From Candidatus Thorarchaeota archaeon (lineage in GTDB: Archaea > Asgardarchaeota > Thorarchaeia > Thorarchaeales > Thorarchaeaceae): 64,000 nt of DNA. Shown in pieces: positions 24,175 to 34,967 of this stretch. The position numbers and the translations under genes are program-made. Where the stretch lies: NCBI GenBank assembly GCA_963726195.1, contig CAVSBO010000017.1, forward strand, positions 29,712 through 93,711, in the 5' to 3' direction. Numbering within the stretch: the first letter of the stretch is position 1; every line of letters begins with the position of its first letter. Under the pieces are notes generated by a model. It did not search any database. It saw only the letters and a list, made by a program, of their open reading frames with translations, and was not told the DNA's origin.

Positions 24175-25002
24175 ATGGCCTATGCGTCAAGTCCATATGC
24201 GCCAAGTAGGCCGTCAGCTTCGCCTTCATCGGGCCGGAGCGTACCAAACATGCCATTGATTAGCATAACTTACGAAACTAAAGACGGACTCAAGAATGCA
24301 GTCAGCTTCGAAACCGATAGAACTGCCCTCCACGTCGATGGAATTGGCGTCGCTTCGATTGACTTGGCACCGTTGTCTTCTTGCTCCAGAATTCACACGG
24401 TTGATCTCTCTTCGAATGCATTGCGTAACATTGACTTGACACCGTTGGCTTCATGCAGAAAGATAGAACGGCTCTTTCTTGGCGGCAATAGACTGCAGAC
24501 CGTAGAACTTGGCCCTCTCTCCTCATGCCCGAAACTCGAGGTGTTGGAGTTGTCGGATAACATTCTGCAATCCCTTGAACTCGCCCCTCTCAGCCAGTGC
24601 GAATCCTTGGACACAATCGATGTCTCTAGGAACACGTTACAGAAAGTGGACCTCTCACCACTAGCGAAATGCGCCAGTCTGAAGTCCGTTCAACTCTCTG
24701 ACAATCAACTGAAGTCAATCGACCTCGGGCCACTATCCGCTTGCACGTTGCTGGAGGACCTCGATTTGGGAGGGAATCAAATTCAGGAGCTCAACCTTTC
24801 ACCCCTGTCATCCTGCAAGGCCCTGCGCACAGTAGACCTCGCTAAGAATAAGCTGCGCAATCTGGACCTCACGCCAATCCTGGCCTGCACAAAACTCGCA
24901 AGACTTGACCTGAGAGACAACATTCTACAGGACTTGGACGTAAGCCCGTTATCCGGAATGACGGAACTCAAGATAATGGGTCTCAGGAGAAAACGGACCT
25001 AG
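24175..25002 (+). CDS. leucine-rich repeat protein
   Basis: About ten tandem 22-23-aa units L-x-PL-x-x-C-x-x-L-x-x-L/V-D/E-L-x-x-N-x-L-x-x-I/V-D/E follow a Ser/Pro-rich head. Confidence 0.8.
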   Translation: MAYASSPYAPSRPSASPSSGRSVPNMPLISITYETKDGLKNAVSFETDRTALHVDGIGVASIDLAPLSSCSRIHTVDLSSNALRNIDLTPLASCRKIERLFLGGNRLQTVELGPLSSCPKLEVLELSDNILQSLELAPLSQCESLDTIDVSRNTLQKVDLSPLAKCASLKSVQLSDNQLKSIDLGPLSACTLLEDLDLGGNQIQELNLSPLSSCKALRTVDLAKNKLRNLDLTPILACTKLARLDLRDNILQDLDVSPLSGMTELKIMGLRRKRT

Positions 25003-26064: not shown

Positions 26065-26263
26065 AACAGCTCACCATTGTCTACTTGTCAAATCCGCTAT
26101 TAACAGAAGCTCATTGGGCAAAGCTCGTTATCGGTGGCAGCCGATGGCAACGATTGCATGCTTCCAAATTCACATCGCATTGAACGCCGACACTGCTTGG
26201 AGGCCAATCGCGCGAATCGAGCACCATCCTTGTGTTGAAAGCTCTAAATATAAAGGGCAGCTC

Positions 26264-26452
26264 ATGCAGAAGGACATAACAGGCGAGACCGTGTTGCTCT
26301 TGAGGACCATTAGGTATACACTCACTCTCCTTGTGTCTGAGGGCATAGTCTCGAAGCAGTTGTCCTTCAGGGATAGTCGGCAAGGTCTTTACAGAGTAAA
26401 CAACGATACGCAAGACTCGAGCTGGCATTCAAAGCAAACTGTGAGTCCGTGA
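26264..26452 (+). CDS. possible small winged-helix-like protein
   Basis: 62-aa tail of a tracked ORF (MQKDITGETVLLLRTIRYTLTLLVSEGIVSKQL...GLYRV). The TAAATATAAA box at 26245-26254 is too close to this ATG for a standard promoter, so the call is weak. Confidence 0.2.
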   Translation: MQKDITGETVLLLRTIRYTLTLLVSEGIVSKQLSFRDSRQGLYRVNNDTQDSSWHSKQTVSP

Positions 26453-26459
26453 TTCCAAG

Positions 26460-28601
26460 ATGAGCACGAAAGTCAAAACACCGCAAATTGACAACAAGCT
26501 GATTGCAGGAGCGTTCACGAAGGCCGCTTCCGATGTTGCCAATGTAGCACGTGGCAAAACCATCGGCGAAGGCAAAGGTCTCTTTGGTGAACCTCGGGAG
26601 CTCCTCGTCTTTGAGATGGCTCGTGCGTCAGGAGTGAAGCAAGACTTGCTGCCGCTCGGAGCCAAGGCACATGAGCGGCTGTTGGCAATCTTTAGGGATA
26701 ATCTGCCTGACGCAGAGCGACCTGGAATTCAAGAGAGTTCGACGCTATGCCTTTATGGACTCGTTCTGAACAACTACGATGAGGAGGACTTCAGGTATCT
26801 CTACCGGTACCTCCTCTACAACTGGAAGGACCAAGAGCAGTGTGAGAAATGGGCACACAAAGCTCTCGTGTTTCTTGGATTGGTAAAGAACCTGTCAGAT
26901 AGAGAGCTGTTCCAAGATATCGTTGACTGGATGAGGTTTCTCGGCACGCCGTCATGGAACCCGACCGTCTTTGTGAGCGCATGTGCTGAATTCGGCGTTG
27001 ACATTTCCTCCATCATGTCGGAGGACGACATGAGGTTCATCGACAGCATCAGGCGTCGCCCTCAGTACCTCGAAGAAGCAGTGACGGGCAAGACCTATCA
27101 TGAGGCGCGTGTTGCATCCCGAGACTGGGTTCCAGATAGCATGTCCTCCAAGATGCTTGCTATTTATCAGAAGCGGGCATATGAAGACGCACAACGAAGA
27201 ATCGCAAAAGACGAGAGCATACAACAGTCCTTCGAATCTGTAAGAACGTCATTCGAACAATCCAAGTTTCTCAGCGACGATGGTACACCATTGCCAGTCC
27301 GGCTTCAGGAATTGCCTGCACCCCCGATGGCGGAAGCAATAGACCCGACTGTGTTTGAGCTCATTCCACAGAAACTGAGAGTCGATCTGCTCTCATCTGT
27401 GGCGTATTCCACTCGGACCAAGAGCATTGAGATTATCTTCATAGGTGGGCCTCGAATAGGACGCAGTGGCATCATCATCAAGACGGACACTGGCGGAGTC
27501 CTCCTCGACTTCGGTTTGTCTGTCGCCAACCAAAAGGTGCCAGAATGGGTGCCCGAGCTGGAAATGATTGACAGTGTCATCATATCACATGCGCACCTCG
27601 ACCATGTTGGGGGGCTTCCTATTCTCTACGAACACTATGATGGAAAATGGTGCTCTGCTGGTGTCACCGGTGCAATCAGCATGGCATTGCTCGAAGACGC
27701 AATGAGTCTGGGCTCAGGGGAATTCTCCAGAAAGGACGACAGACACGAGGACATGATGCAGTTCAGTTCGGCGACGAGTTTGACCAAGGTATCAAAGAAC
27801 CACGTTCGCCTTGAGATTGGTAAGAGTGCTGAAGTGGGCCCCGGCATCGTCGTCACACCGATTGATGCCTGTCACATCCCGGGGAGCGCAGCCTACCTTC
27901 TCGATATCGAGGGGGTAAGGCTTCTCTACACTGGCGATTTCAATACCGACCAGTCGATCCTGTTTCCGGGCTCAAACCTACCGGTAGACAGTAGGGTGAC
28001 AATGCTAGACGGAACCTATTGGGGTCGCGAGGACTTCAATCGTCCTAAGGTAGCGGAGACCATCACAGATGTCGTGAACAAGCATGGTCCCGTAATTATT
28101 CCAAGTTTCGCGGTAGGCCGCTCCCAAGAAGTGCTTATGATGTTGGAAGCGCTTGGCGTGACTCAAAGAAGAAACGTAATCGTTTCAGGTCTCGCGGAAC
28201 GTGTGACCAAGCTGGTCGGGCTTACGGGTCACTGGCAAGCAATGAGAAAGAACAAAACTGTGCTTGAGAAGGAGGACATCTTGGTTGCTGGTGGAGGGAT
28301 GCTTGGCGGCGGACTCGCTAGGCAGCACTTCAGAGAACAATGCAACAATCCTGACGCGGCGGTAATATTGTGCGGATACCTCGCCCCGAGGACTCCGGGC
28401 TGGAATCTCCTCAAGGGGTATGAACCTCACCAATGTAAAGTAGAGTACGCCCGGCTCAGCGCTCACTCCTCGGCAAGCAAACTGGAGAAATATGTCAATT
28501 CGTGTACTGGACAAAGGATAATGGTGCATACGCCGGCTAAGACAGCTCCTGACGGGGTCACCATACCGGATTACAGAACGAGAGTTGTGATTGCCACCTA
28601 G
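26460..28601 (+). CDS. metallo-beta-lactamase / beta-CASP family nuclease with ~330-aa unknown N-terminal domain
   Basis: MBL motif ISHAHLDHVGGLP, downstream DACH..GSA and TGDF motifs, and a beta-CASP-like C-terminal half. I do not recognise the helical N-terminal 330 aa. Confidence 0.75.
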   Translation: MSTKVKTPQIDNKLIAGAFTKAASDVANVARGKTIGEGKGLFGEPRELLVFEMARASGVKQDLLPLGAKAHERLLAIFRDNLPDAERPGIQESSTLCLYGLVLNNYDEEDFRYLYRYLLYNWKDQEQCEKWAHKALVFLGLVKNLSDRELFQDIVDWMRFLGTPSWNPTVFVSACAEFGVDISSIMSEDDMRFIDSIRRRPQYLEEAVTGKTYHEARVASRDWVPDSMSSKMLAIYQKRAYEDAQRRIAKDESIQQSFESVRTSFEQSKFLSDDGTPLPVRLQELPAPPMAEAIDPTVFELIPQKLRVDLLSSVAYSTRTKSIEIIFIGGPRIGRSGIIIKTDTGGVLLDFGLSVANQKVPEWVPELEMIDSVIISHAHLDHVGGLPILYEHYDGKWCSAGVTGAISMALLEDAMSLGSGEFSRKDDRHEDMMQFSSATSLTKVSKNHVRLEIGKSAEVGPGIVVTPIDACHIPGSAAYLLDIEGVRLLYTGDFNTDQSILFPGSNLPVDSRVTMLDGTYWGREDFNRPKVAETITDVVNKHGPVIIPSFAVGRSQEVLMMLEALGVTQRRNVIVSGLAERVTKLVGLTGHWQAMRKNKTVLEKEDILVAGGGMLGGGLARQHFREQCNNPDAAVILCGYLAPRTPGWNLLKGYEPHQCKVEYARLSAHSSASKLEKYVNSCTGQRIMVHTPAKTAPDGVTIPDYRTRVVIAT

Positions 28602-28619: not shown

Positions 28620-30572
28620 TTAAGCAACGACATCCAGCACGCCATCGAGGACTAGCTTGGTTGCTACGTATTTCATTGCTTGTAAACTCACACCTACCCT
28701 GTGGACAACGTCCTCCAAGGTTGAAGTGCCATCGCAAAGGTCGACAAACCTGACCACCACAGCTCCATAGGCTTTCCTGTCATCCTCTCCCACGTCACGC
28801 AGCTTTCTCAGAACACTCGTTGGCCCTATCTCGATCTTGAAGTCCACCCATCCGTATTTCTCCATGATCTGGAGGCACCCAATAACCATGTCCCGGGGGA
28901 TACCTAGAGCTCTGACGAGACCTCCTACCGTTTTTGTACCATCGATAGCGCCCCTAACCTGCACAATCACCTTTCCCAGTTCCCTATTGTTGAAGGGCAG
29001 CGGCCGTCCGGATGGTTTTGAGCGCACAACGTAGTCGAGATTCACCGGCCTTAGCGGGAATGGCGCAAGAAGCTGGAAGACGGAAGTCTCGAATCTCGAT
29101 ATATCTCCGTCCCACTTTGACCAAACATCCTCGTAGTCTTGTTCTATGTCATGGAGCGCAGAACTCATGGCAGATCTCTGGGCATCCTCGTCGTTGTTGT
29201 TTGTTACGATTATGGCTGCTACGAAATGAGGAGACTTCTCGACAATCACCAGATTCCCTTCGTGCTCGATGGTTTCGAGTGCGTCAGTCCTTTGAGCATC
29301 ATCGCTTGGCTCCTTATCTATTCCACCAAACGAGTCAAGCGCCGATATGAGAGATACCACAGATGTTGGGTCTATGTCAGGCGTGGTATAACTGATATAG
29401 TAGACGATTTGGAAACTCTCCGCCTGTTGCAGAATGAACAATAGGTGAAGAACTCTGGCAGGCTGCTTTCCCGGTTCGATAATTGCCTCCTCAATTGCGT
29501 GTGTAGAGGGGCCTATTTCGTCACTCTCGTCCCATTCCAGTGACTCAGGATCTCCCTCGGTCGCCACTGTAGGGACTTCTTTCTGCGCGACCTGACCATC
29601 CTCTTGGTAAGGCACGTTCTCGAATCCGGGTCGGGCACGTGGCGCTTTGCCCCCTTTCGGAACCTCTAGCTCTTCCGTCTTGCGCCTGACAGTAATCATC
29701 TCGCTGAGAGGCCTATCTGGCAACTGTATTCCAACGGTCTTTGCTGAAACCTCAAGCATGAAACGAATGAACTCTTCCCTCCGCGTCTTGTCGGTTGCAA
29801 CCATGGGAAAAGTGGGAGCACCGAGCAGACGCTTGATTTTGTCGGCCTTCATCGACTCAGGAAGATCCTGCTTGTTGGCAACGATGAAAATCGGAGTTGA
29901 AGAGGCCTCCTTCCTAATACTTCGAAGGAGAGTCTTTGTGTTCATCACATTCCTGAAACTCGAATCAGTGACCAAGAATATGACGTCTGTACCTTGGAAG
30001 TAGAATCCCCAAAGGTCTTGGAAGACTGCCTGTCCCGCGAAGTCCCATATTGTTACAAGGAAGGTGCCGAACTGAATGGTCTCAGACGAATCAACGGCCA
30101 CACTTATCGTGGGAACGTAGCCGCCGGGTGCGGGTTCCTTCCCGAAGAGCAATCGGAGTAGTGTGCTCTTTCCGACACCACCAGCTCCCACGAAACTCAC
30201 CTTGAATCTAGTGAATATGAGCTCTCCAAGTATATCCTCAAGGTTGTCTCGAATATAGCTCATACTGTTCCCACGCAAAGCAGTCGTGATTCTTCCTGCA
30301 CTCTCTCGGACCTTGTGATTGATGACTCTGTCTTCGTCCCTTCCGTCAGTGACGAATATCAGAAGGAGGTTATCACCCACGGGGCTGTGGAACGCCTTGT
30401 TCTGCCCAACGTAGATTGGTGTGTCCGATGAGATCCCTTGAGTGGTCATCAGATCCTTGTAGCCCGCAAGGAACTCTTTGATGTCCGAATCTGTGAATTC
30501 TATCCTCCAGAACCGGGTCCTGACCACAACGCTTCCATCTGTCTTGTCAATGAGAATCACGTTGTGTATCAT
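28620..30572 (-). CDS. multidomain small GTPase (longin/roadblock-like N-domain, Ras-superfamily G domain, second roadblock-like domain, wHTH-like C-terminus)
   Basis: G1 FVGAGGVGKST (aa ~127-137), G3 WDFAGQ, G4 NKQD. The flanking alpha/beta modules and two C-terminal DG-x-x-T/S...ED helix modules were assigned by sequence pattern only. Confidence 0.8.
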   Translation of the reverse strand: MIHNVILIDKTDGSVVVRTRFWRIEFTDSDIKEFLAGYKDLMTTQGISSDTPIYVGQNKAFHSPVGDNLLLIFVTDGRDEDRVINHKVRESAGRITTALRGNSMSYIRDNLEDILGELIFTRFKVSFVGAGGVGKSTLLRLLFGKEPAPGGYVPTISVAVDSSETIQFGTFLVTIWDFAGQAVFQDLWGFYFQGTDVIFLVTDSSFRNVMNTKTLLRSIRKEASSTPIFIVANKQDLPESMKADKIKRLLGAPTFPMVATDKTRREEFIRFMLEVSAKTVGIQLPDRPLSEMITVRRKTEELEVPKGGKAPRARPGFENVPYQEDGQVAQKEVPTVATEGDPESLEWDESDEIGPSTHAIEEAIIEPGKQPARVLHLLFILQQAESFQIVYYISYTTPDIDPTSVVSLISALDSFGGIDKEPSDDAQRTDALETIEHEGNLVIVEKSPHFVAAIIVTNNNDEDAQRSAMSSALHDIEQDYEDVWSKWDGDISRFETSVFQLLAPFPLRPVNLDYVVRSKPSGRPLPFNNRELGKVIVQVRGAIDGTKTVGGLVRALGIPRDMVIGCLQIMEKYGWVDFKIEIGPTSVLRKLRDVGEDDRKAYGAVVVRFVDLCDGTSTLEDVVHRVGVSLQAMKYVATKLVLDGVLDVVA

Positions 30573-30666
30573 TTCGTGGGGCCACCTCTGGCTTTAGTCT
30601 CAATGTGGAGTGCTGCAGCTCATGCTCGTCCTAGGTACCCACAGTAATTCCAGATAAAGAAATCCT

Positions 30667-32385
30667 CTATGGAGGCTTGAGTGCACCTGCGAGGTCAGTA
30701 TCGAAACCAACAATCCAACGCTGATGGAGCTGGGAGAAGACTGTCACTAGCACGTTAGTGGCAATGCCTGTCGCCTTCGCAATATCCTCGATGGAGTGCT
30801 TGCCATCGACGAGCCGCACTATCTCTTTCAGGTGAGAGAACAGACCGCAGAGATCCTGTTCTGGTTCAGCAAGAAGCAGTGGAACATCCTTTGAGTTTAG
30901 GATAGGCTTCGCCTTGATGGCGCCCATCGCCTTCAGAAGATGCACGGCCCCAAGAACCATTACAGGTCCTCCTTTTCCCACAAGCTGTGACATCGTTTTC
31001 TTACCGTCGAGACTGTCCCAGACCGCGTTCAGGAAGTCTCGAACTGAAGGATCTCGAAACCTATCCCAGTTTGGCTCTTCCACTTTGTATGGAGCCATAC
31101 GCGACCCCAAGTGCTCCGGCGGAAGAGTGGCCAAGAGCTTAATCGTGAATGCAGGTGCCTCATATTGATCGTTTGGATTGACGCCTTGGTCAGGTGCCTC
31201 ATCAAAGTAAAGGTCAGGAAGAAAGGAAAAGCGAGAACGAATGGACTCCACATCTTCCTTGTCTCCTGTTATTAGAGTGAAAATCAGATTCTCTCTCTCT
31301 ATAATGGCATACTTGAGATCACCGGTTTGAAAGACCGAGGTTCGATTTGGGCTAGCTGGGTCAAGATGAAACATCGAAATAGCAGCCACCACGTTTGGTG
31401 CACGTTCAAGCACTTTCGAGCTGGGCTCGTAGTAATAAGTGAACACTGGCGTACCAGTCTCTTTGTCAATCACAAAGAAAGCCTGATGACCCAATGCCTT
31501 CGCTTTTGGTAAGATGCGACTGGGACTCCAGTCAATGCTTTCATCAACAAGCCAGGTACTAAATGCAACATCAGGCTCTACGGTTATCACTCCGCACACT
31601 TGCAGCAGTGAGAGCAGAAGACGAGAGGGCTTGTCCGGCGGGCAACTGCACATCCTTGCATCAAACTGAGTCTGAAACTGCCGCACCAACTCAAGCTGAT
31701 CCTGTGAACCGGGCACCAGGGCAACAGGGACGGAGGAATTCCTCTTGATGCGTTCGAGGAGCCTTCCAAGCGATTCCTTTGATGGAAGCGGCGGGCCAAC
31801 GATTATGGCCATCCCATCTATCTCTTTGAGGTCTGTCGACCAGTTGGCAGCAGGAACTTCCCTTTCGTCAATACGCTTCACTTTCACGACAAATGGACCT
31901 ATTGAAACAGGGCGCAGGAAACGGTCCGGCAAGGCTAACCGCTGAATCAGGTTGGCCACAGTCATGGCCAACTTGTTCCCGGGCTGGGGGTTTTCCGGGC
32001 CGACAAAGCATATTGAAACGTTCTTCCTAAGGCAGGCATCCACGAGCTTGGGAAAGGAGCCTCGAGCCTCTCTCCCGGAGCTCTCGGTGACTCTTCTTCT
32101 AAACGCCGCCTCAAGCATTCTAACCTTGCCTAGGTCATCGGCCGTAACAGTCGGTAAGTCGCTCACTCCAATCAGAATAGCGTTCTCACCTGTCGGACAG
32201 AATGTTACGCCTCGATCGCCGAACGAGAACGAGCTGAATCCGATCACAGACTCTGACTGCACCAACTCATAGTACCTGTCGACCACGGCCTTAATCAGCT
32301 CCTGGTCTGTTTCTGCACGGAGAAACGAACCAGATGCAACAACCCTTGAAGCTTGAAGGTCGTAGAGATAGGCTGCTGCTATCAA
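30667..32385 (-). CDS. paralog of the adjacent GTPase with a degenerate G domain (pseudo-GTPase)
   Basis: It is colinear with 28620-30572. At the P-loop position it reads FVGPENPQPGNKL, and I see no DxxG or NKxD. It shares the C-terminal modules (SLDGKKTM.., LVDGKHSIEDI..). Confidence 0.65.
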   Translation of the reverse strand: MIAAAYLYDLQASRVVASGSFLRAETDQELIKAVVDRYYELVQSESVIGFSSFSFGDRGVTFCPTGENAILIGVSDLPTVTADDLGKVRMLEAAFRRRVTESSGREARGSFPKLVDACLRKNVSICFVGPENPQPGNKLAMTVANLIQRLALPDRFLRPVSIGPFVVKVKRIDEREVPAANWSTDLKEIDGMAIIVGPPLPSKESLGRLLERIKRNSSVPVALVPGSQDQLELVRQFQTQFDARMCSCPPDKPSRLLLSLLQVCGVITVEPDVAFSTWLVDESIDWSPSRILPKAKALGHQAFFVIDKETGTPVFTYYYEPSSKVLERAPNVVAAISMFHLDPASPNRTSVFQTGDLKYAIIERENLIFTLITGDKEDVESIRSRFSFLPDLYFDEAPDQGVNPNDQYEAPAFTIKLLATLPPEHLGSRMAPYKVEEPNWDRFRDPSVRDFLNAVWDSLDGKKTMSQLVGKGGPVMVLGAVHLLKAMGAIKAKPILNSKDVPLLLAEPEQDLCGLFSHLKEIVRLVDGKHSIEDIAKATGIATNVLVTVFSQLHQRWIVGFDTDLAGALKPP

Positions 32386-32525
32386 GTCCTTGTGGTCCTC
32401 CTAGAGTGACAGGAATGTCTGAGTTCGAAGCACTAGTCCTGAACGCCAAACCTACATGAAACTTGCTCATGACACTTTCTCCTCTGTTCAAATGCACAAT
32501 TGGGTTCAGAAAGGCACATGTGCCC

Positions 32526-34556
32526 CTACGTCTCTCGAAGATAGTTCAGCACATCTCGAATCTGCTCTGGTTCAGCATGCCGCTCAGCAAGCACAGCCCG
32601 AGCATCCCCGACCCCTAGTTGGTACAGAGCGAATACCATTGACTCAATACGGCTCGAGTAGTTCAGGCCTTCTTTGAGCACGAGTCTTACCTCACTAATC
32701 AAATCACGAGCTGTTTCCTCGTGAACGCTCGACGAGCCAACAGGATCCGGGATAGGGAGAGATGCAAGTTCCCTGTTCGACACGTGATTGTTTGCGTTGC
32801 TGAGATTGAATCTCCAGTTTATCAAGTCTGAGTTCAGCACCCCGAGAAGGTAGAACAGATAGTCCCGATTCACGCGTCCCTTCAGAGAAATGTAGTTGCA
32901 GGAATTGGCCAAGATGGTCTCAGCCGGAACGAAGGCGAACTTCAGGCGCCATCGTTGTGCCCGGTTCGAGACCTGTTGGCACACGATGCGGGGCTTGTGC
33001 ATGTGAGGAAGACGTTCAGAGGAATTGGACGATTTCATGAATTGATTAAGGTCCACAGACTCTGCCTTGGCCTTCTTCCTTGACCTCATTCTGTATCTCG
33101 TGATTTGAGATCCTCTGACAAGCTCGGACCCGGAGATGTCTAGTCGGATGCTGCCTTTGTTGAGTGTCAAGTCAAGTTCGCCGCGTCGACATACCAGCCA
33201 ACCGATTTTACCCAGCGGCGGGTTAGCATGCATCTTGTGCAGAACTCTCCAGCCTCTTGCATTAGCCCGGGGTATTGCGAGCGAATCTCCCATGGTGTCT
33301 CGGATTGCATCCACTGGTATCTTGAGCGAATCCGTGTTCTCGGTCTCTTCGATGCCTGTCAGTCCAAAACACGCTTCCAAACTTCGGCTTTTCACACCCT
33401 TATCAACGACTGCAATACAGACCGACTGCGTGACCCCCGGGAACAACTTCGCATCCTCAGGGAATTCGTAGATTGCCCGTACACTGTGCTCGGTCATCAG
33501 TGTGCGACGCAGAGGTGCGGCCGACATGTCAGCCAAAAGAGTGGAGGGCACAATGAATCCCACCTGACCTCGCTTCTGAGTCAGCCTCACGGCGCGTTCA
33601 ATAAACAACCTGTAACTGTCGATACTGTTTTGGCCACTGAGGCCGAAATCGCCGCACTCTCTGAAGTAAGCAACATCCTCAGCCATACGAGCCCTATAGT
33701 CGGCGTATTCGGCGGGCGGAATCGTACCATCAGAATAGGCAACGTGCTCTCGAAGAAACTCGCTGACATTGGGTTTCAGCCGGTTGTAGGGTGGGTTCAT
33801 GACTACGAAATCAAAACCGCCTGAGTCACGCACGATCTCGGGAAACTCATCCAACCATTCGAAGGGATGCCTGGACCGAGGGTCTGCAAAGAAATGAGAG
33901 TTGTCTGATTTGCCATCCAATCCCTTCAGCGAAATGAGCGAATTGCCTTGCTTGAGATCAGAACCTAGAGACCTAGTCGACGAAATCAATGCATTCGAAT
34001 GGAGCACCAAGGAAATCGAAGCATCGGCGACCTCGAGGGAAGCACGATCTAGGTCAACGCCGTACAGATTCTGCCTGAAACACTCTGACAAGGATTGCTG
34101 ATTGGGACCAAGCACCGAGAGGCAACTAAGCCCTATATCAGCACAGGCGCGAGCTATTCGCGTCTCTCTCGCCTTGAAAGCGAGCATCGCTGCGACCAAG
34201 AAAGCACCGGACCCACACGCAGGGTCAAGCAATCTTAGTGACATTAGATGGCGGAGGGCTTCGTCCCGCTCCTCAGGGATTCTTCGAATGATCTGGTCTA
34301 GGACGTTGCCCAGAGTCTTCTCGACAATGAAGCTGGAAACTGCTGTCGGCGTATAGAATACTCCGAGAGGCCTTCGTGTTACAATTCCTTTTGGCGAAGC
34401 GACGAGTCCGTGAGAACCTATCAGATGAATATCTGCCAACAGGTCGGGCAGGTCAGTAATCGCCAGATGACTGAAATCGTACGACCAATCCAAGTTCAAG
34501 GTCCGCTCAAGACAAGACTTGGCAATATCAAGTACTTCCGGTTTTGATATTCCCAT
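32526..34556 (-). CDS. N6-adenine DNA methyltransferase, gamma class (Eco57I/TaqI-like), no nuclease domain seen
   Basis: GVFYTP, motif I LLDPACGSGAFL (aa ~109-120), motif IV VMNPPY (aa ~252-257), and a large C-terminal target-recognition-like region. Confidence 0.85.
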   Translation of the reverse strand: MGISKPEVLDIAKSCLERTLNLDWSYDFSHLAITDLPDLLADIHLIGSHGLVASPKGIVTRRPLGVFYTPTAVSSFIVEKTLGNVLDQIIRRIPEERDEALRHLMSLRLLDPACGSGAFLVAAMLAFKARETRIARACADIGLSCLSVLGPNQQSLSECFRQNLYGVDLDRASLEVADASISLVLHSNALISSTRSLGSDLKQGNSLISLKGLDGKSDNSHFFADPRSRHPFEWLDEFPEIVRDSGGFDFVVMNPPYNRLKPNVSEFLREHVAYSDGTIPPAEYADYRARMAEDVAYFRECGDFGLSGQNSIDSYRLFIERAVRLTQKRGQVGFIVPSTLLADMSAAPLRRTLMTEHSVRAIYEFPEDAKLFPGVTQSVCIAVVDKGVKSRSLEACFGLTGIEETENTDSLKIPVDAIRDTMGDSLAIPRANARGWRVLHKMHANPPLGKIGWLVCRRGELDLTLNKGSIRLDISGSELVRGSQITRYRMRSRKKAKAESVDLNQFMKSSNSSERLPHMHKPRIVCQQVSNRAQRWRLKFAFVPAETILANSCNYISLKGRVNRDYLFYLLGVLNSDLINWRFNLSNANNHVSNRELASLPIPDPVGSSSVHEETARDLISEVRLVLKEGLNYSSRIESMVFALYQLGVGDARAVLAERHAEPEQIRDVLNYLRET

Positions 34557-34891: not shown

Positions 34892-34967
34892 TGGAGCCCG
34901 CCAGGGGAGTCGCACCCCTCTAACACAGATCTGCAGTCTGTTGCGTAAGCTGATCCGCCAGACGGGC
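34892..34967 (-). tRNA. tRNA-Cys (GCA)
   Basis: Folded by hand: 7-bp acceptor stem GCCCGTC/GGCGGGC, D stem GCG/CGC, anticodon stem ACAGA/TCTGT with loop CTGCAGA (anticodon GCA), and T stem AGGGG/CCCCT. It has discriminator U73 (a Cys identity element) and an encoded CCA. Confidence 0.9.

Follow-up and report, generated by a model that had tools for sequence, protein, structure and literature searches.

The window analyzed here is a 64,000-nucleotide (nt) stretch of contig CAVSBO010000017.1 from a Candidatus Thorarchaeota archaeon. It carries two genes, A and B, that lie head to tail on the minus strand (Table 1). B is upstream of A in the direction of transcription, with 94 nt between them; B starts with TTG and A with ATG. 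Short open reading frames (ORFs) on the strand opposite A and B were judged to be mechanical. A first-pass annotation, made from the sequence alone, had called the two products GTPase and pseudo-GTPase 'giants'. Its ORF coordinates and the motif positions it gave for A agree with the ORF list and with a motif check. The word 'giants' is an overstatement; both proteins are mid-sized.

Protein A is, on sequence criteria, a Ras-superfamily GTPase. It reads FVGAGGVGKST at amino acids (aa) 127–137, WDFAGQ at aa 176–181 and NKQD at aa 233–236. Residues 121–270 scored well above the cut-off for Pfam Arf (E 1.7e-18; 67.1 bits, cut-off 22.3), and also above the cut-offs for Pfam Roc (64.1 bits), Pfam Ras (52.1 bits) and TIGR00231 (66.9, cut-off 42.5). 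The G1, switch-I Thr, G3 and G4 elements expected of a small GTPase of this superfamily are thus all present, along with the matches to curated models. Moreover, GxGGVGKST, T155, WDFAGQ (with its catalytic Gln) and NKQD are invariant in 39/39 members of the A family. The closest PDB sequences are Arf1 (E 3e-15) and then Rab35. Pfam Gtr1_RagA (PF04670) gave 21.0 bits, below its cut-off of 22 and far under the Arf score, and part of the A family carries a precomputed PF04670 match. Arf proper has an amphipathic helix directly before the G domain. A lacks this arrangement: in the AlphaFold2 model its G domain lies inside the chain, after a longin domain of 101 aa and two helices. Thorarchaeota encode >120 full-length homologues of A, at 62–80% identity.

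Other parts of A are also distinctive. R20, F21 and W22 in the first longin domain are invariant across the family, as is a 12-mer, ALETIEHEGNLV, in the second. A disordered, acidic linker between the G domain and the second longin domain has a mean net charge of -9 and, by hhalign, no counterpart in B. We considered a Roco (Roc-COR) assignment for A, prompted by the Roc score of 64 bits and a nearby leucine-rich repeat (LRR) gene. This was dropped: no Roco or LRRK2 structure occurs among the 50 matches listed per model by Foldseek, and the LRR gene lies outside the conserved gene block.

Protein B, judged by its sequence and predicted fold, is a pseudo-GTPase that has kept the G fold and lost the nucleotide-binding motifs. 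Where A has its P-loop, B reads CFVGPENPQPGNKL, a stretch that varies even within the B family. GxxxxGK[ST] occurs in 0/50 family members, and neither DxxG nor NKxD is conserved at the aligned positions in those 50; the G4 equivalent is a conserved P-G-S-D. AlphaFold2 nonetheless gives this region a Ras-like order of strands and helices, with a predicted local distance difference test (pLDDT) score of 84–92. B has ~120 homologues (34–77% identity), all named 'hypothetical'. A search with the B family profile over 1.84 billion representatives returned only 48 proteins; besides the B family itself, these were the A family (E ~1e-10) and a handful of proteins ~280–300 aa long. B alone matched nothing above cut-offs in Pfam, NCBIfam, PDB phmmer searches or domain-wise Pfam scans of cut-out pieces. 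Below the cut-off, Fuz_longin_1 matched its second longin domain (E 2.8e-4; 21.5 bits, cut-off 26.1), a match found in 13/50 B members.

A and B align along their whole length. BLASTP yielded two colinear blocks, A 1–236 with B 1–229 (E 4e-5) and A 542–640 with B 458–553 (E 2e-4), and hhalign of the two family profiles ran end to end over 553 columns (probability 98.7%, E 2.8e-16). AlphaFold2 predicted one domain order for both: a first longin domain (LD1), a G or pseudo-G domain, a second longin domain (LD2), a bridge, and two winged helices (wH1 and wH2). LD1, with two connector helices after it, runs strand-strand-helix-strand-strand-strand-helix-helix, the longin permutation. Strand-strand-helix-strand-strand-strand-helix modules span aa 2–99 and 374–479 of A and aa 2–101 and 300–395 of B, and each protein is closed by two helix-plus-hairpin modules of the winged-helix type. 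Much of this had been read from the letters by the first-pass annotation, namely the complete Ras-superfamily G domain and acidic linker of A, the lack of P-loop, DxxG and NKxD in B, the module-for-module colinearity of the two, their longin/roadblock-like flanking modules and the two C-terminal helix modules; all of these stand.

The two families differ in where they are constrained. In A, mean pairwise identity is 74% for LD1, 93% for the G domain, 66% for LD2 and 80% for wH2. In B, it is 30% for LD1 and 36% for the pseudo-G domain, and 53–61% for LD2, bridge and wH1. The N-terminal half of B thus evolves freely, while LD2, bridge and wH1 are constrained. B's selected function therefore sits in the half that it has in common with A and with a stand-alone Nprl-like family described below.

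For both models, the top Foldseek matches in the PDB were a SEA-complex chain (8adl_S, 9h4q_T) and GATOR1 chains (E 5e-7 to 1e-5, 335–377 columns). We infer from chain length and from the sequence table of the profile search that these are Nprl2/Nprl3 (Npr2/Npr3); chain length also served to identify some of the other matched PDB chains. Nprl2/Nprl3, the closest eukaryotic look-alike of the C-terminal half, was absent from the first-pass annotation. The comparison with Rag GTPases made there fared well: RagA, RagC, Gtr1 and Gtr2 are among the best matches of B (E ~2e-6), and the ~320 aligned columns cover the G domain plus the longin/roadblock domain that follows it. One chain of this set, 6ces_A, also matches A. 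B further matches the tri-longin subunits of Rab guanine nucleotide exchange factors (RabGEFs) Fuzzy, Mon1, Ccz1 and HPS (E 7e-6 to 3e-4), with the longest alignments of all (460–526 columns). The single-domain longins VAMP7, zeta-COP and sigma-adaptins match at a target-normalised TM-score of ~0.5. Whole-chain TM-scores are low (0.13–0.3), and the likeness is therefore one of domains and their order, not of rigid-body arrangement.

Profile searches of B, of the C-terminal half and of the stand-alone family against PDB sequences gave marginal matches only, which agree with the fold search and would be insufficient alone. They include SAR1 to the pseudo-G domain (E 0.28), NPRL2 aa 170–235 to wH2 of B (E 0.79), LD1 of MON1A to LD2 (E 0.43) and MarR (E 0.06). 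No Robl_LC7 match was found on A or B. DUF742 matched winged-helix modules weakly (E 0.003 or weaker) in 5/50 B members and in 5/35 members of the stand-alone family. Nothing was found in the literature under the Pfam name 'Cmi2'.

The stand-alone family is here called family C. Its 289-aa member P0276 aligns end to end with aa 366–647 of A (25% identity, E 1e-28). Family C is Thorarchaeota-wide and consists of longin, bridge and two winged helices. It is encoded by a second pair of tandem paralogues (~280–290 aa and ~276–280 aa) that correspond by homology to the C-terminal halves of A and B. Two genes away from this pair is a Robl_LC7 roadblock gene, and two genes without assignment (~320 and 225 aa) are also found nearby; by tblastn, the window itself holds no family C locus. 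The generic winged-helix model HTH_47 matches 35/35 family C members, and HTH_NPRL3, which describes the C-terminal helix-turn-helix (HTH) of GATOR1 Nprl3, matches 25/35 (best E 9.4e-5). Pfam NPR2 matches 1/35. HTH_NPRL3 matches 1/50 B members (E 0.078), and A and B do not reach the cut-offs of NPR2, NPR3 or HTH_NPRL3. Nprl2 and Nprl3 are homologous heterodimer partners, each starting with a longin and having at least two winged HTH domains (Levine et al., PMC3747258). The accessible text of Liu et al. (bioRxiv 10.1101/2020.10.19.343400) reports an NPRL2-like family, with a longin and a C-terminal domain, in most Thorarchaeota metagenome-assembled genomes (MAGs); family C is probably that family. 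Since their C-terminal halves are homologous to family C, A and B are best described as a longin-plus-G unit fused ahead of an Nprl-type protein.

Table 1. Genes and domains of the A/B locus, with context genes and three family C pairs. Positions are those of the window, except for the family C pairs, which are numbered within their own loci (L068, L070, L071).
Feature	Position	Strand	Basis and remarks
Gene A, 650 aa: longin / Arf-Rag-like GTPase / longin / bridge / wH / wH	28620..30572	-	ORF, Pfam Arf/Roc/Ras, homologues, AlphaFold2
A LD1 (aa 1–101), longin-type	30270..30572	-	AlphaFold2 DSSP, pLDDT 70–91; Foldseek sigma-adaptins, zeta-COP
A G domain (aa 121–285)	29718..30212	-	G1 GAGGVGKST, switch-I T155, G3 WDFAGQ, G4 NKQD
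A acidic disordered linker (aa 291–369)	29466..29702	-	pLDDT <50; net charge ~-9; 34% identity
A LD2 (aa 372–480), second longin-type domain	29133..29459	-	AlphaFold2 DSSP, pLDDT ~80–90; aligns with stand-alone family C
A bridge (aa 481–527), between LD2 and wH1	28992..29132	-	W.GD..F motif conserved; helix + strand; 66% identity
A tandem wH (wH1 aa 528–592; wH2 aa 594–650)	28623..28991	-	AlphaFold2 DSSP; weak Pfam HTH_47, TrmB
Gene B, 572 aa, paralogue with degenerate G domain	30667..32385	-	ORF; hhalign to A; AlphaFold2 mean pLDDT 84
B LD1 (aa 1–101), longin-type	32083..32385	-	AlphaFold2 DSSP, pLDDT ~90; 30% mean identity
B pseudo-G domain (aa 121–265)	31591..32025	-	AlphaFold2 DSSP, alignment to A G domain, Foldseek Rag/Gtr
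B LD2 (aa 299–396), best-conserved part of B	31198..31491	-	AlphaFold2 DSSP; sub-cut-off Fuz_longin_1; 61% identity
B bridge (aa 397–443)	31057..31197	-	Conserved F413, K416–T420, P422, W440, F443; 55% identity
B tandem wH (wH1 aa 444–496; wH2 aa 508–565)	30691..31056	-	AlphaFold2 DSSP; weak NPRL2, HTH_47
Eco57I/Alw26I-type N6-adenine DNA methyltransferase, upstream of B	32526..34556	-	Pfam, NCBIfam, PADLOC; context only
Beta-CASP metallo-beta-lactamase nuclease, convergent with A	26460..28601	+	Pfam, NCBIfam; context only
Family C pair, L070	2198–3040 and 3100–3942		
Family C pair, L071	7001–7858 and 7973–8806		
Family C pair, L068	455–1327 and 1324–2154		

To see how the pair is kept, we scanned one genome per species, which gave 63 loci, all from Thorarchaeota-type MAGs. 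The A/B family is single-copy and universal in the Thorarchaeota genomes checked. Pairing could be assessed where the sequence continued for 700 nt or more downstream from B, which left 52 loci, and A follows B on the same strand in 52/52. The check for conserved neighbours suggested by the first-pass annotation thus came out in favour of the pairing. The gap between B and A measures 87–372 nt in 48/52 loci, and 1.8–3.6 kilobases (kb) of unrelated genes are inserted there in 4/52. Three of these insertions are ~1.8 kb (L027, L030 and L065); the fourth (L054, 7704–10871; 3.6 kb) holds genes for a 526-aa protein, predicted to be anchored in the membrane by its C-terminus, and for a multi-pass membrane protein of 417 aa. 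In a mirror-tree comparison, evolutionary distances in A tracked those in B (partial r 0.62 given the neighbouring nuclease) much better than those in the nuclease or the methylase next to the pair (partial r 0.14). With correlations of r 0.82–0.92 among all four neighbouring genes, the test carries little information.

We propose, at a probability of about 0.5, that A and B form an obligate heterodimeric small-GTPase switch, specific to Thorarchaeota and part of their core genome, with longin domains as platforms, A alone cycling GTP, and winged helices as protein scaffold. Longin and roadblock domains pair to form GTPase platforms, and the paralogous longin proteins Nprl2/3, Rag A/C and Mon1/Ccz1 are heterodimers (PMC3747258). 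By extension from such solved systems, LD2 of A would pair side by side with LD2 of B into a platform, perhaps with LD1 pairing with LD1 too, as in Rag A/C, Nprl2–Nprl3, Mon1–Ccz1 and MglB. On this longin platform, only A would cycle between GTP and GDP. The dead G domain of B would fill the second G-domain place and so make the switch asymmetric. The nucleotide state of A may then change which of the conserved surfaces on LD2, bridge and winged helices can be reached by partners. The winged helices would act as a protein–protein scaffold, as they do in GATOR1, rather than read DNA. Such partners might include the stand-alone NPRL-like pair and the roadblock protein, whose genes lie elsewhere in these genomes.

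Several observations weigh against this proposal. The AlphaFold2 models are of single chains with predicted TM-scores (pTM) of 0.43–0.52, which leaves the packing of domains within each chain uncertain. The G domain of A is poorly modelled (pLDDT 30–65), probably owing to the low diversity of its alignment; for this region the sequence evidence stands in. Pfam longin and NPRL family matches on A and B all fall below curated cut-offs. A catalytic arginine finger and a GP motif mark the longins of the GTPase-activating protein (GAP) type (PMC12290439), and inspection by eye found neither conserved in LD1 or LD2. By eye, consensus and alignment do show a G-x-P ahead of strand 2 in family C and in the LD2 of most A sequences; at this place A of the window has QQAESFQ and B has TGEA. 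Strict co-transcription is evidently not required, given the four insertions between B and A. The pair also belongs to a block (methylase, B, A, nuclease, NadA, haloacid dehalogenase (HAD) hydrolase) that is syntenic across Thorarchaeota, and its adjacency alone could be inherited gene order. Finally, distances in B correlate with those in the nuclease as well as with those in A.

Some of these points would also fit a different account, in which A and B work independently as homodimers or monomers, their adjacency is the trace of an old tandem duplication kept by slow change of gene order, and B is a longin/winged-helix scaffold unrelated to the GTPase cycle of A. The conserved block includes unrelated housekeeping genes (NadA, HAD hydrolase, NAD-kinase-like), unrelated genes have entered between B and A in the four loci, the mirror-tree signal extends beyond A and B, and Tran et al. 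modelled homodimers for other Asgard Rag-like architectures (PMC10933270). Yet order and strand are the same in all 52 loci, mostly with a gap of ~90–190 nt, while B diverges down to 32–34% identity. All known families of paralogous longin pairs (Nprl2/3, Rag A/C, Mon1/Ccz1, FLCN/FNIP) are heterodimers (PMC3747258). Moreover, the constrained half of B is exactly the half that it shares with A. We therefore regard independence as unlikely, though it is the alternative that survives best.

Nprl2/3 of GATOR1/SEACIT are paralogues, like A and B, and are a known heterodimer in which one subunit is catalytic and the other is not. Their plan of longin, short intermediary and at least two winged helices (PMC3747258) is that of family C and of the C-terminal half of A (aa 372–650) and B (aa 299–565). 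They differ in having no G domain and in acting in trans, with DEPDC5, as a GAP for RagA. A and B have the longin and G or pseudo-G unit fused in front, by eye no conserved arginine finger or GP motif was seen in them, and with TM-scores of 0.13–0.25 to Nprl2/3 the likeness extends to the domain level alone.

Rag/Gtr proteins, obligate heterodimers of paralogues joined by roadblock-type domains, likewise have a G domain followed by a longin/roadblock-type domain. However, both Rag subunits bind nucleotide, and B is predicted not to, with P-loop and NKxD in 0/50 members. The Rags also lack the N-terminal longin and the winged helices, and Arf is by far the better-scoring model for the G domain of A (67 bits). 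In A and B, LD2 is permuted as in longins, not as in roadblock domains, and an 80-aa disordered linker parts it from the G domain of A. The tri-longin RabGEFs (Mon1–Ccz1, Fuzzy–Inturned/CPLANE, HPS1–HPS4/BLOC-3) each pair two paralogous multi-longin proteins into a heterodimer that serves as a GTPase platform. They have three longins where A and B have two and a G-type domain, the Pfam match to them is below cut-off, and their GTPase is a separate client, whereas that of A and B is built in. MglA–MglB and the actinobacterial conservon also combine a small GTPase with a roadblock-type platform. The conservon consists of CvnB (roadblock), CvnC (DUF742) and CvnD (GTPase), and includes a small winged-helix-like protein. 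These are separate small proteins, however; A and B have no Robl_LC7 and only sub-threshold DUF742, and MglA-type G domains rank below Arf and Rac in searches with A. Overall, the pair appears to be a simple relative of the Rag/GATOR1 machinery that acts as a switch in eukaryotes.

Related Asgard proteins have been published. Tran et al. 2024 described Rag-like GTPases of the Lokiarchaeon MK-D1, often annotated as Arf, whose G domain carries a fused longin, carries a fused roadblock, or sits between the two, and predicted that one operonic pair dimerises like Gtr1–Gtr2 (PMC10933270). A shares with these the Arf-like annotation, a fusion between longin/roadblock-type domains and the encoding next to a paralogue. 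Longin–Rag fusions are mentioned in the accessible text of Liu et al. (bioRxiv 10.1101/2020.10.19.343400), and GAP-type longins have been linked to Asgard longins (Traffic 2025). The earlier statement that the architecture was undescribed therefore holds in part. Asgard longin–GTPase–roadblock fusions, an operonic Rag-like pair and an NPRL2-like family are all in print. As far as the accessible text of these three papers goes, they do not describe a winged-helix tail on such a GTPase, a pseudo-GTPase partner, or the homology of A and B to the stand-alone NPRL-like pair, which makes a four-member family.

The first-pass annotation had given the pair a nucleic-acid-binding output, so that the tandem winged helices would bind DNA or RNA and the two proteins would be a GTP-controlled regulator of transcription or of nucleic acids. 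There is something to be said for this. TrmB, MarR, Rrf2 and HTH_7 give weak Pfam matches, DNA methyltransferases and a beta-CASP nuclease are conserved neighbours, and Levine et al. once raised a DNA partner for the winged helices of Nprl2 (PMC3747258). But mean isoelectric points (pI) are 7.15 and 4.81 for wH1 and wH2 of A and 7.42 and 5.23 for those of B, with net charges of -3.7 to +0.4; neutral to acidic modules of this kind offer no basic DNA-reading surface, and the remainder of A and B is strongly acidic. The matches on A and B to DNA-binding HTH families (TrmB, MarR, HTH_7) are all below cut-offs. HTH_47, a generic model, matches 12/50 B members and, weakly as does TrmB, the winged helices of A. 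The recurrent specific affinity, seen mainly in the stand-alone relatives (25/35), is to the C-terminal HTH of NPRL3, and the best structural matches are GATOR1 subunits, in which such domains are structural. For these reasons (neutral-to-acidic pI, relatives that are GATOR1 scaffold domains, sub-threshold DNA-binding matches) the winged helices are described as NPRL3-like and a nucleic-acid output is not supported; we consider it very unlikely.

The genes around the pair are well conserved. The N6-adenine methylase lies upstream of B, and the beta-CASP nuclease lies convergently downstream, in every locus with enough flank. The same block carries NadA, a HAD hydrolase and often a NAD-kinase-like gene, and in the window its flanks are housekeeping genes for GH116, cysteinyl-tRNA synthetase (CysRS) and an aminotransferase. 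With housekeeping genes in the block, we read the wider neighbourhood as inherited gene order and not as an operon of related function. The methylase, which has a TaqI_C specificity domain, is part of the Thorarchaeota core genome. Its annotated neighbours include no identified restriction endonuclease, and it looks like an orphan, possibly housekeeping, enzyme. Between it and B, 55/67 loci have a C5 DNA methylase gene (~409–436 aa), in place of which the window has a 140-nt gap (32386–32525); no match to this gene was found anywhere in the window. The nuclease is 713 aa long, with its stop codon 19 nt from that of A and 49–65% identity across loci; its aa 1–327 have no Pfam match.

A and B might instead serve, as accessory subunits, a module for DNA modification, restriction or RNA processing that also comprises the N6-adenine methylase, the nuclease and, in most genomes, the C5 methylase. 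This would suit these constant neighbours and the existence of GTP-dependent restriction (e.g. McrBC), but is highly improbable: neither A, B nor the nuclease has a PADLOC match, the G domain of A is too uniform across the class for a fast-evolving, patchy defence gene, the family is single-copy and universal, A and B are intact in a window without the C5 methylase, no restriction endonuclease domain was found, and the convergent nuclease is not in the same operon. An anti-phage defence role was rejected: the methylase alone matches in PADLOC (Type II methyltransferase models), A and B are strongly conserved members of the core genome, and those in the flanks are housekeeping genes.

Other features of the surroundings are recorded here. 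A NAD_kinase_C-containing gene stands just upstream of the beta-CASP gene in 32/67 loci; in the window, its last ~56 residues are recognisable at 26246–26413 (+; 55% identity), which looks like the remnant of a deleted gene. The LRR gene (24175–25002, +; 275 aa; LRR_8, E 3.7e-33) lies between the HAD hydrolase and NadA, and is absent from that place in the three related loci inspected gene by gene (L001–L003). A stand-alone 197-aa small GTPase of Arf/Ras/Roc type is encoded just upstream of the methylase in one divergent genome (L001, 3799–4392); only 3/67 loci have it there, and it is absent from the window. The window contains no Rfam RNA family, and its only tRNA is tRNA-Cys at 34892–34967.

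Growth control in eukaryotes depends on Rag heterodimers and longin-based regulators (GATOR1, folliculin, Ragulator) whose origin is debated and whose Asgard relatives have hardly been studied biochemically. The A/B pair could be a self-contained fused 'Rag plus GATOR1-like' module, with a Rag-type G/pseudo-G pair and an Nprl2/Nprl3-type longin and winged-helix scaffold, working with the stand-alone Nprl-like pair and the roadblock protein. We think this extension unlikely. If it were true, eukaryotic Rags and longin–winged-HTH regulators would descend from, or have been assembled out of, one archaeal protein family, and Thorarchaeota would keep a minimal nutrient- or state-sensing switch without TOR. 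The weight of the pair for eukaryogenesis is limited in any case, as the family occurs in Thorarchaeota alone, a group to which eukaryotes are not most closely related, and related architectures are already published. The pair is a small, soluble-looking system of two genes that is found throughout one Asgard class. It unites an intact GTPase and a naturally inactive paralogue with two longin platforms and a winged-helix tail of the Nprl type. If A and B dimerise, as proposed above, they would be a simple model for how longin platforms read the state of a GTPase and what a pseudo-GTPase contributes, and for whether Nprl-type winged helices were protein scaffolds before eukaryotes.

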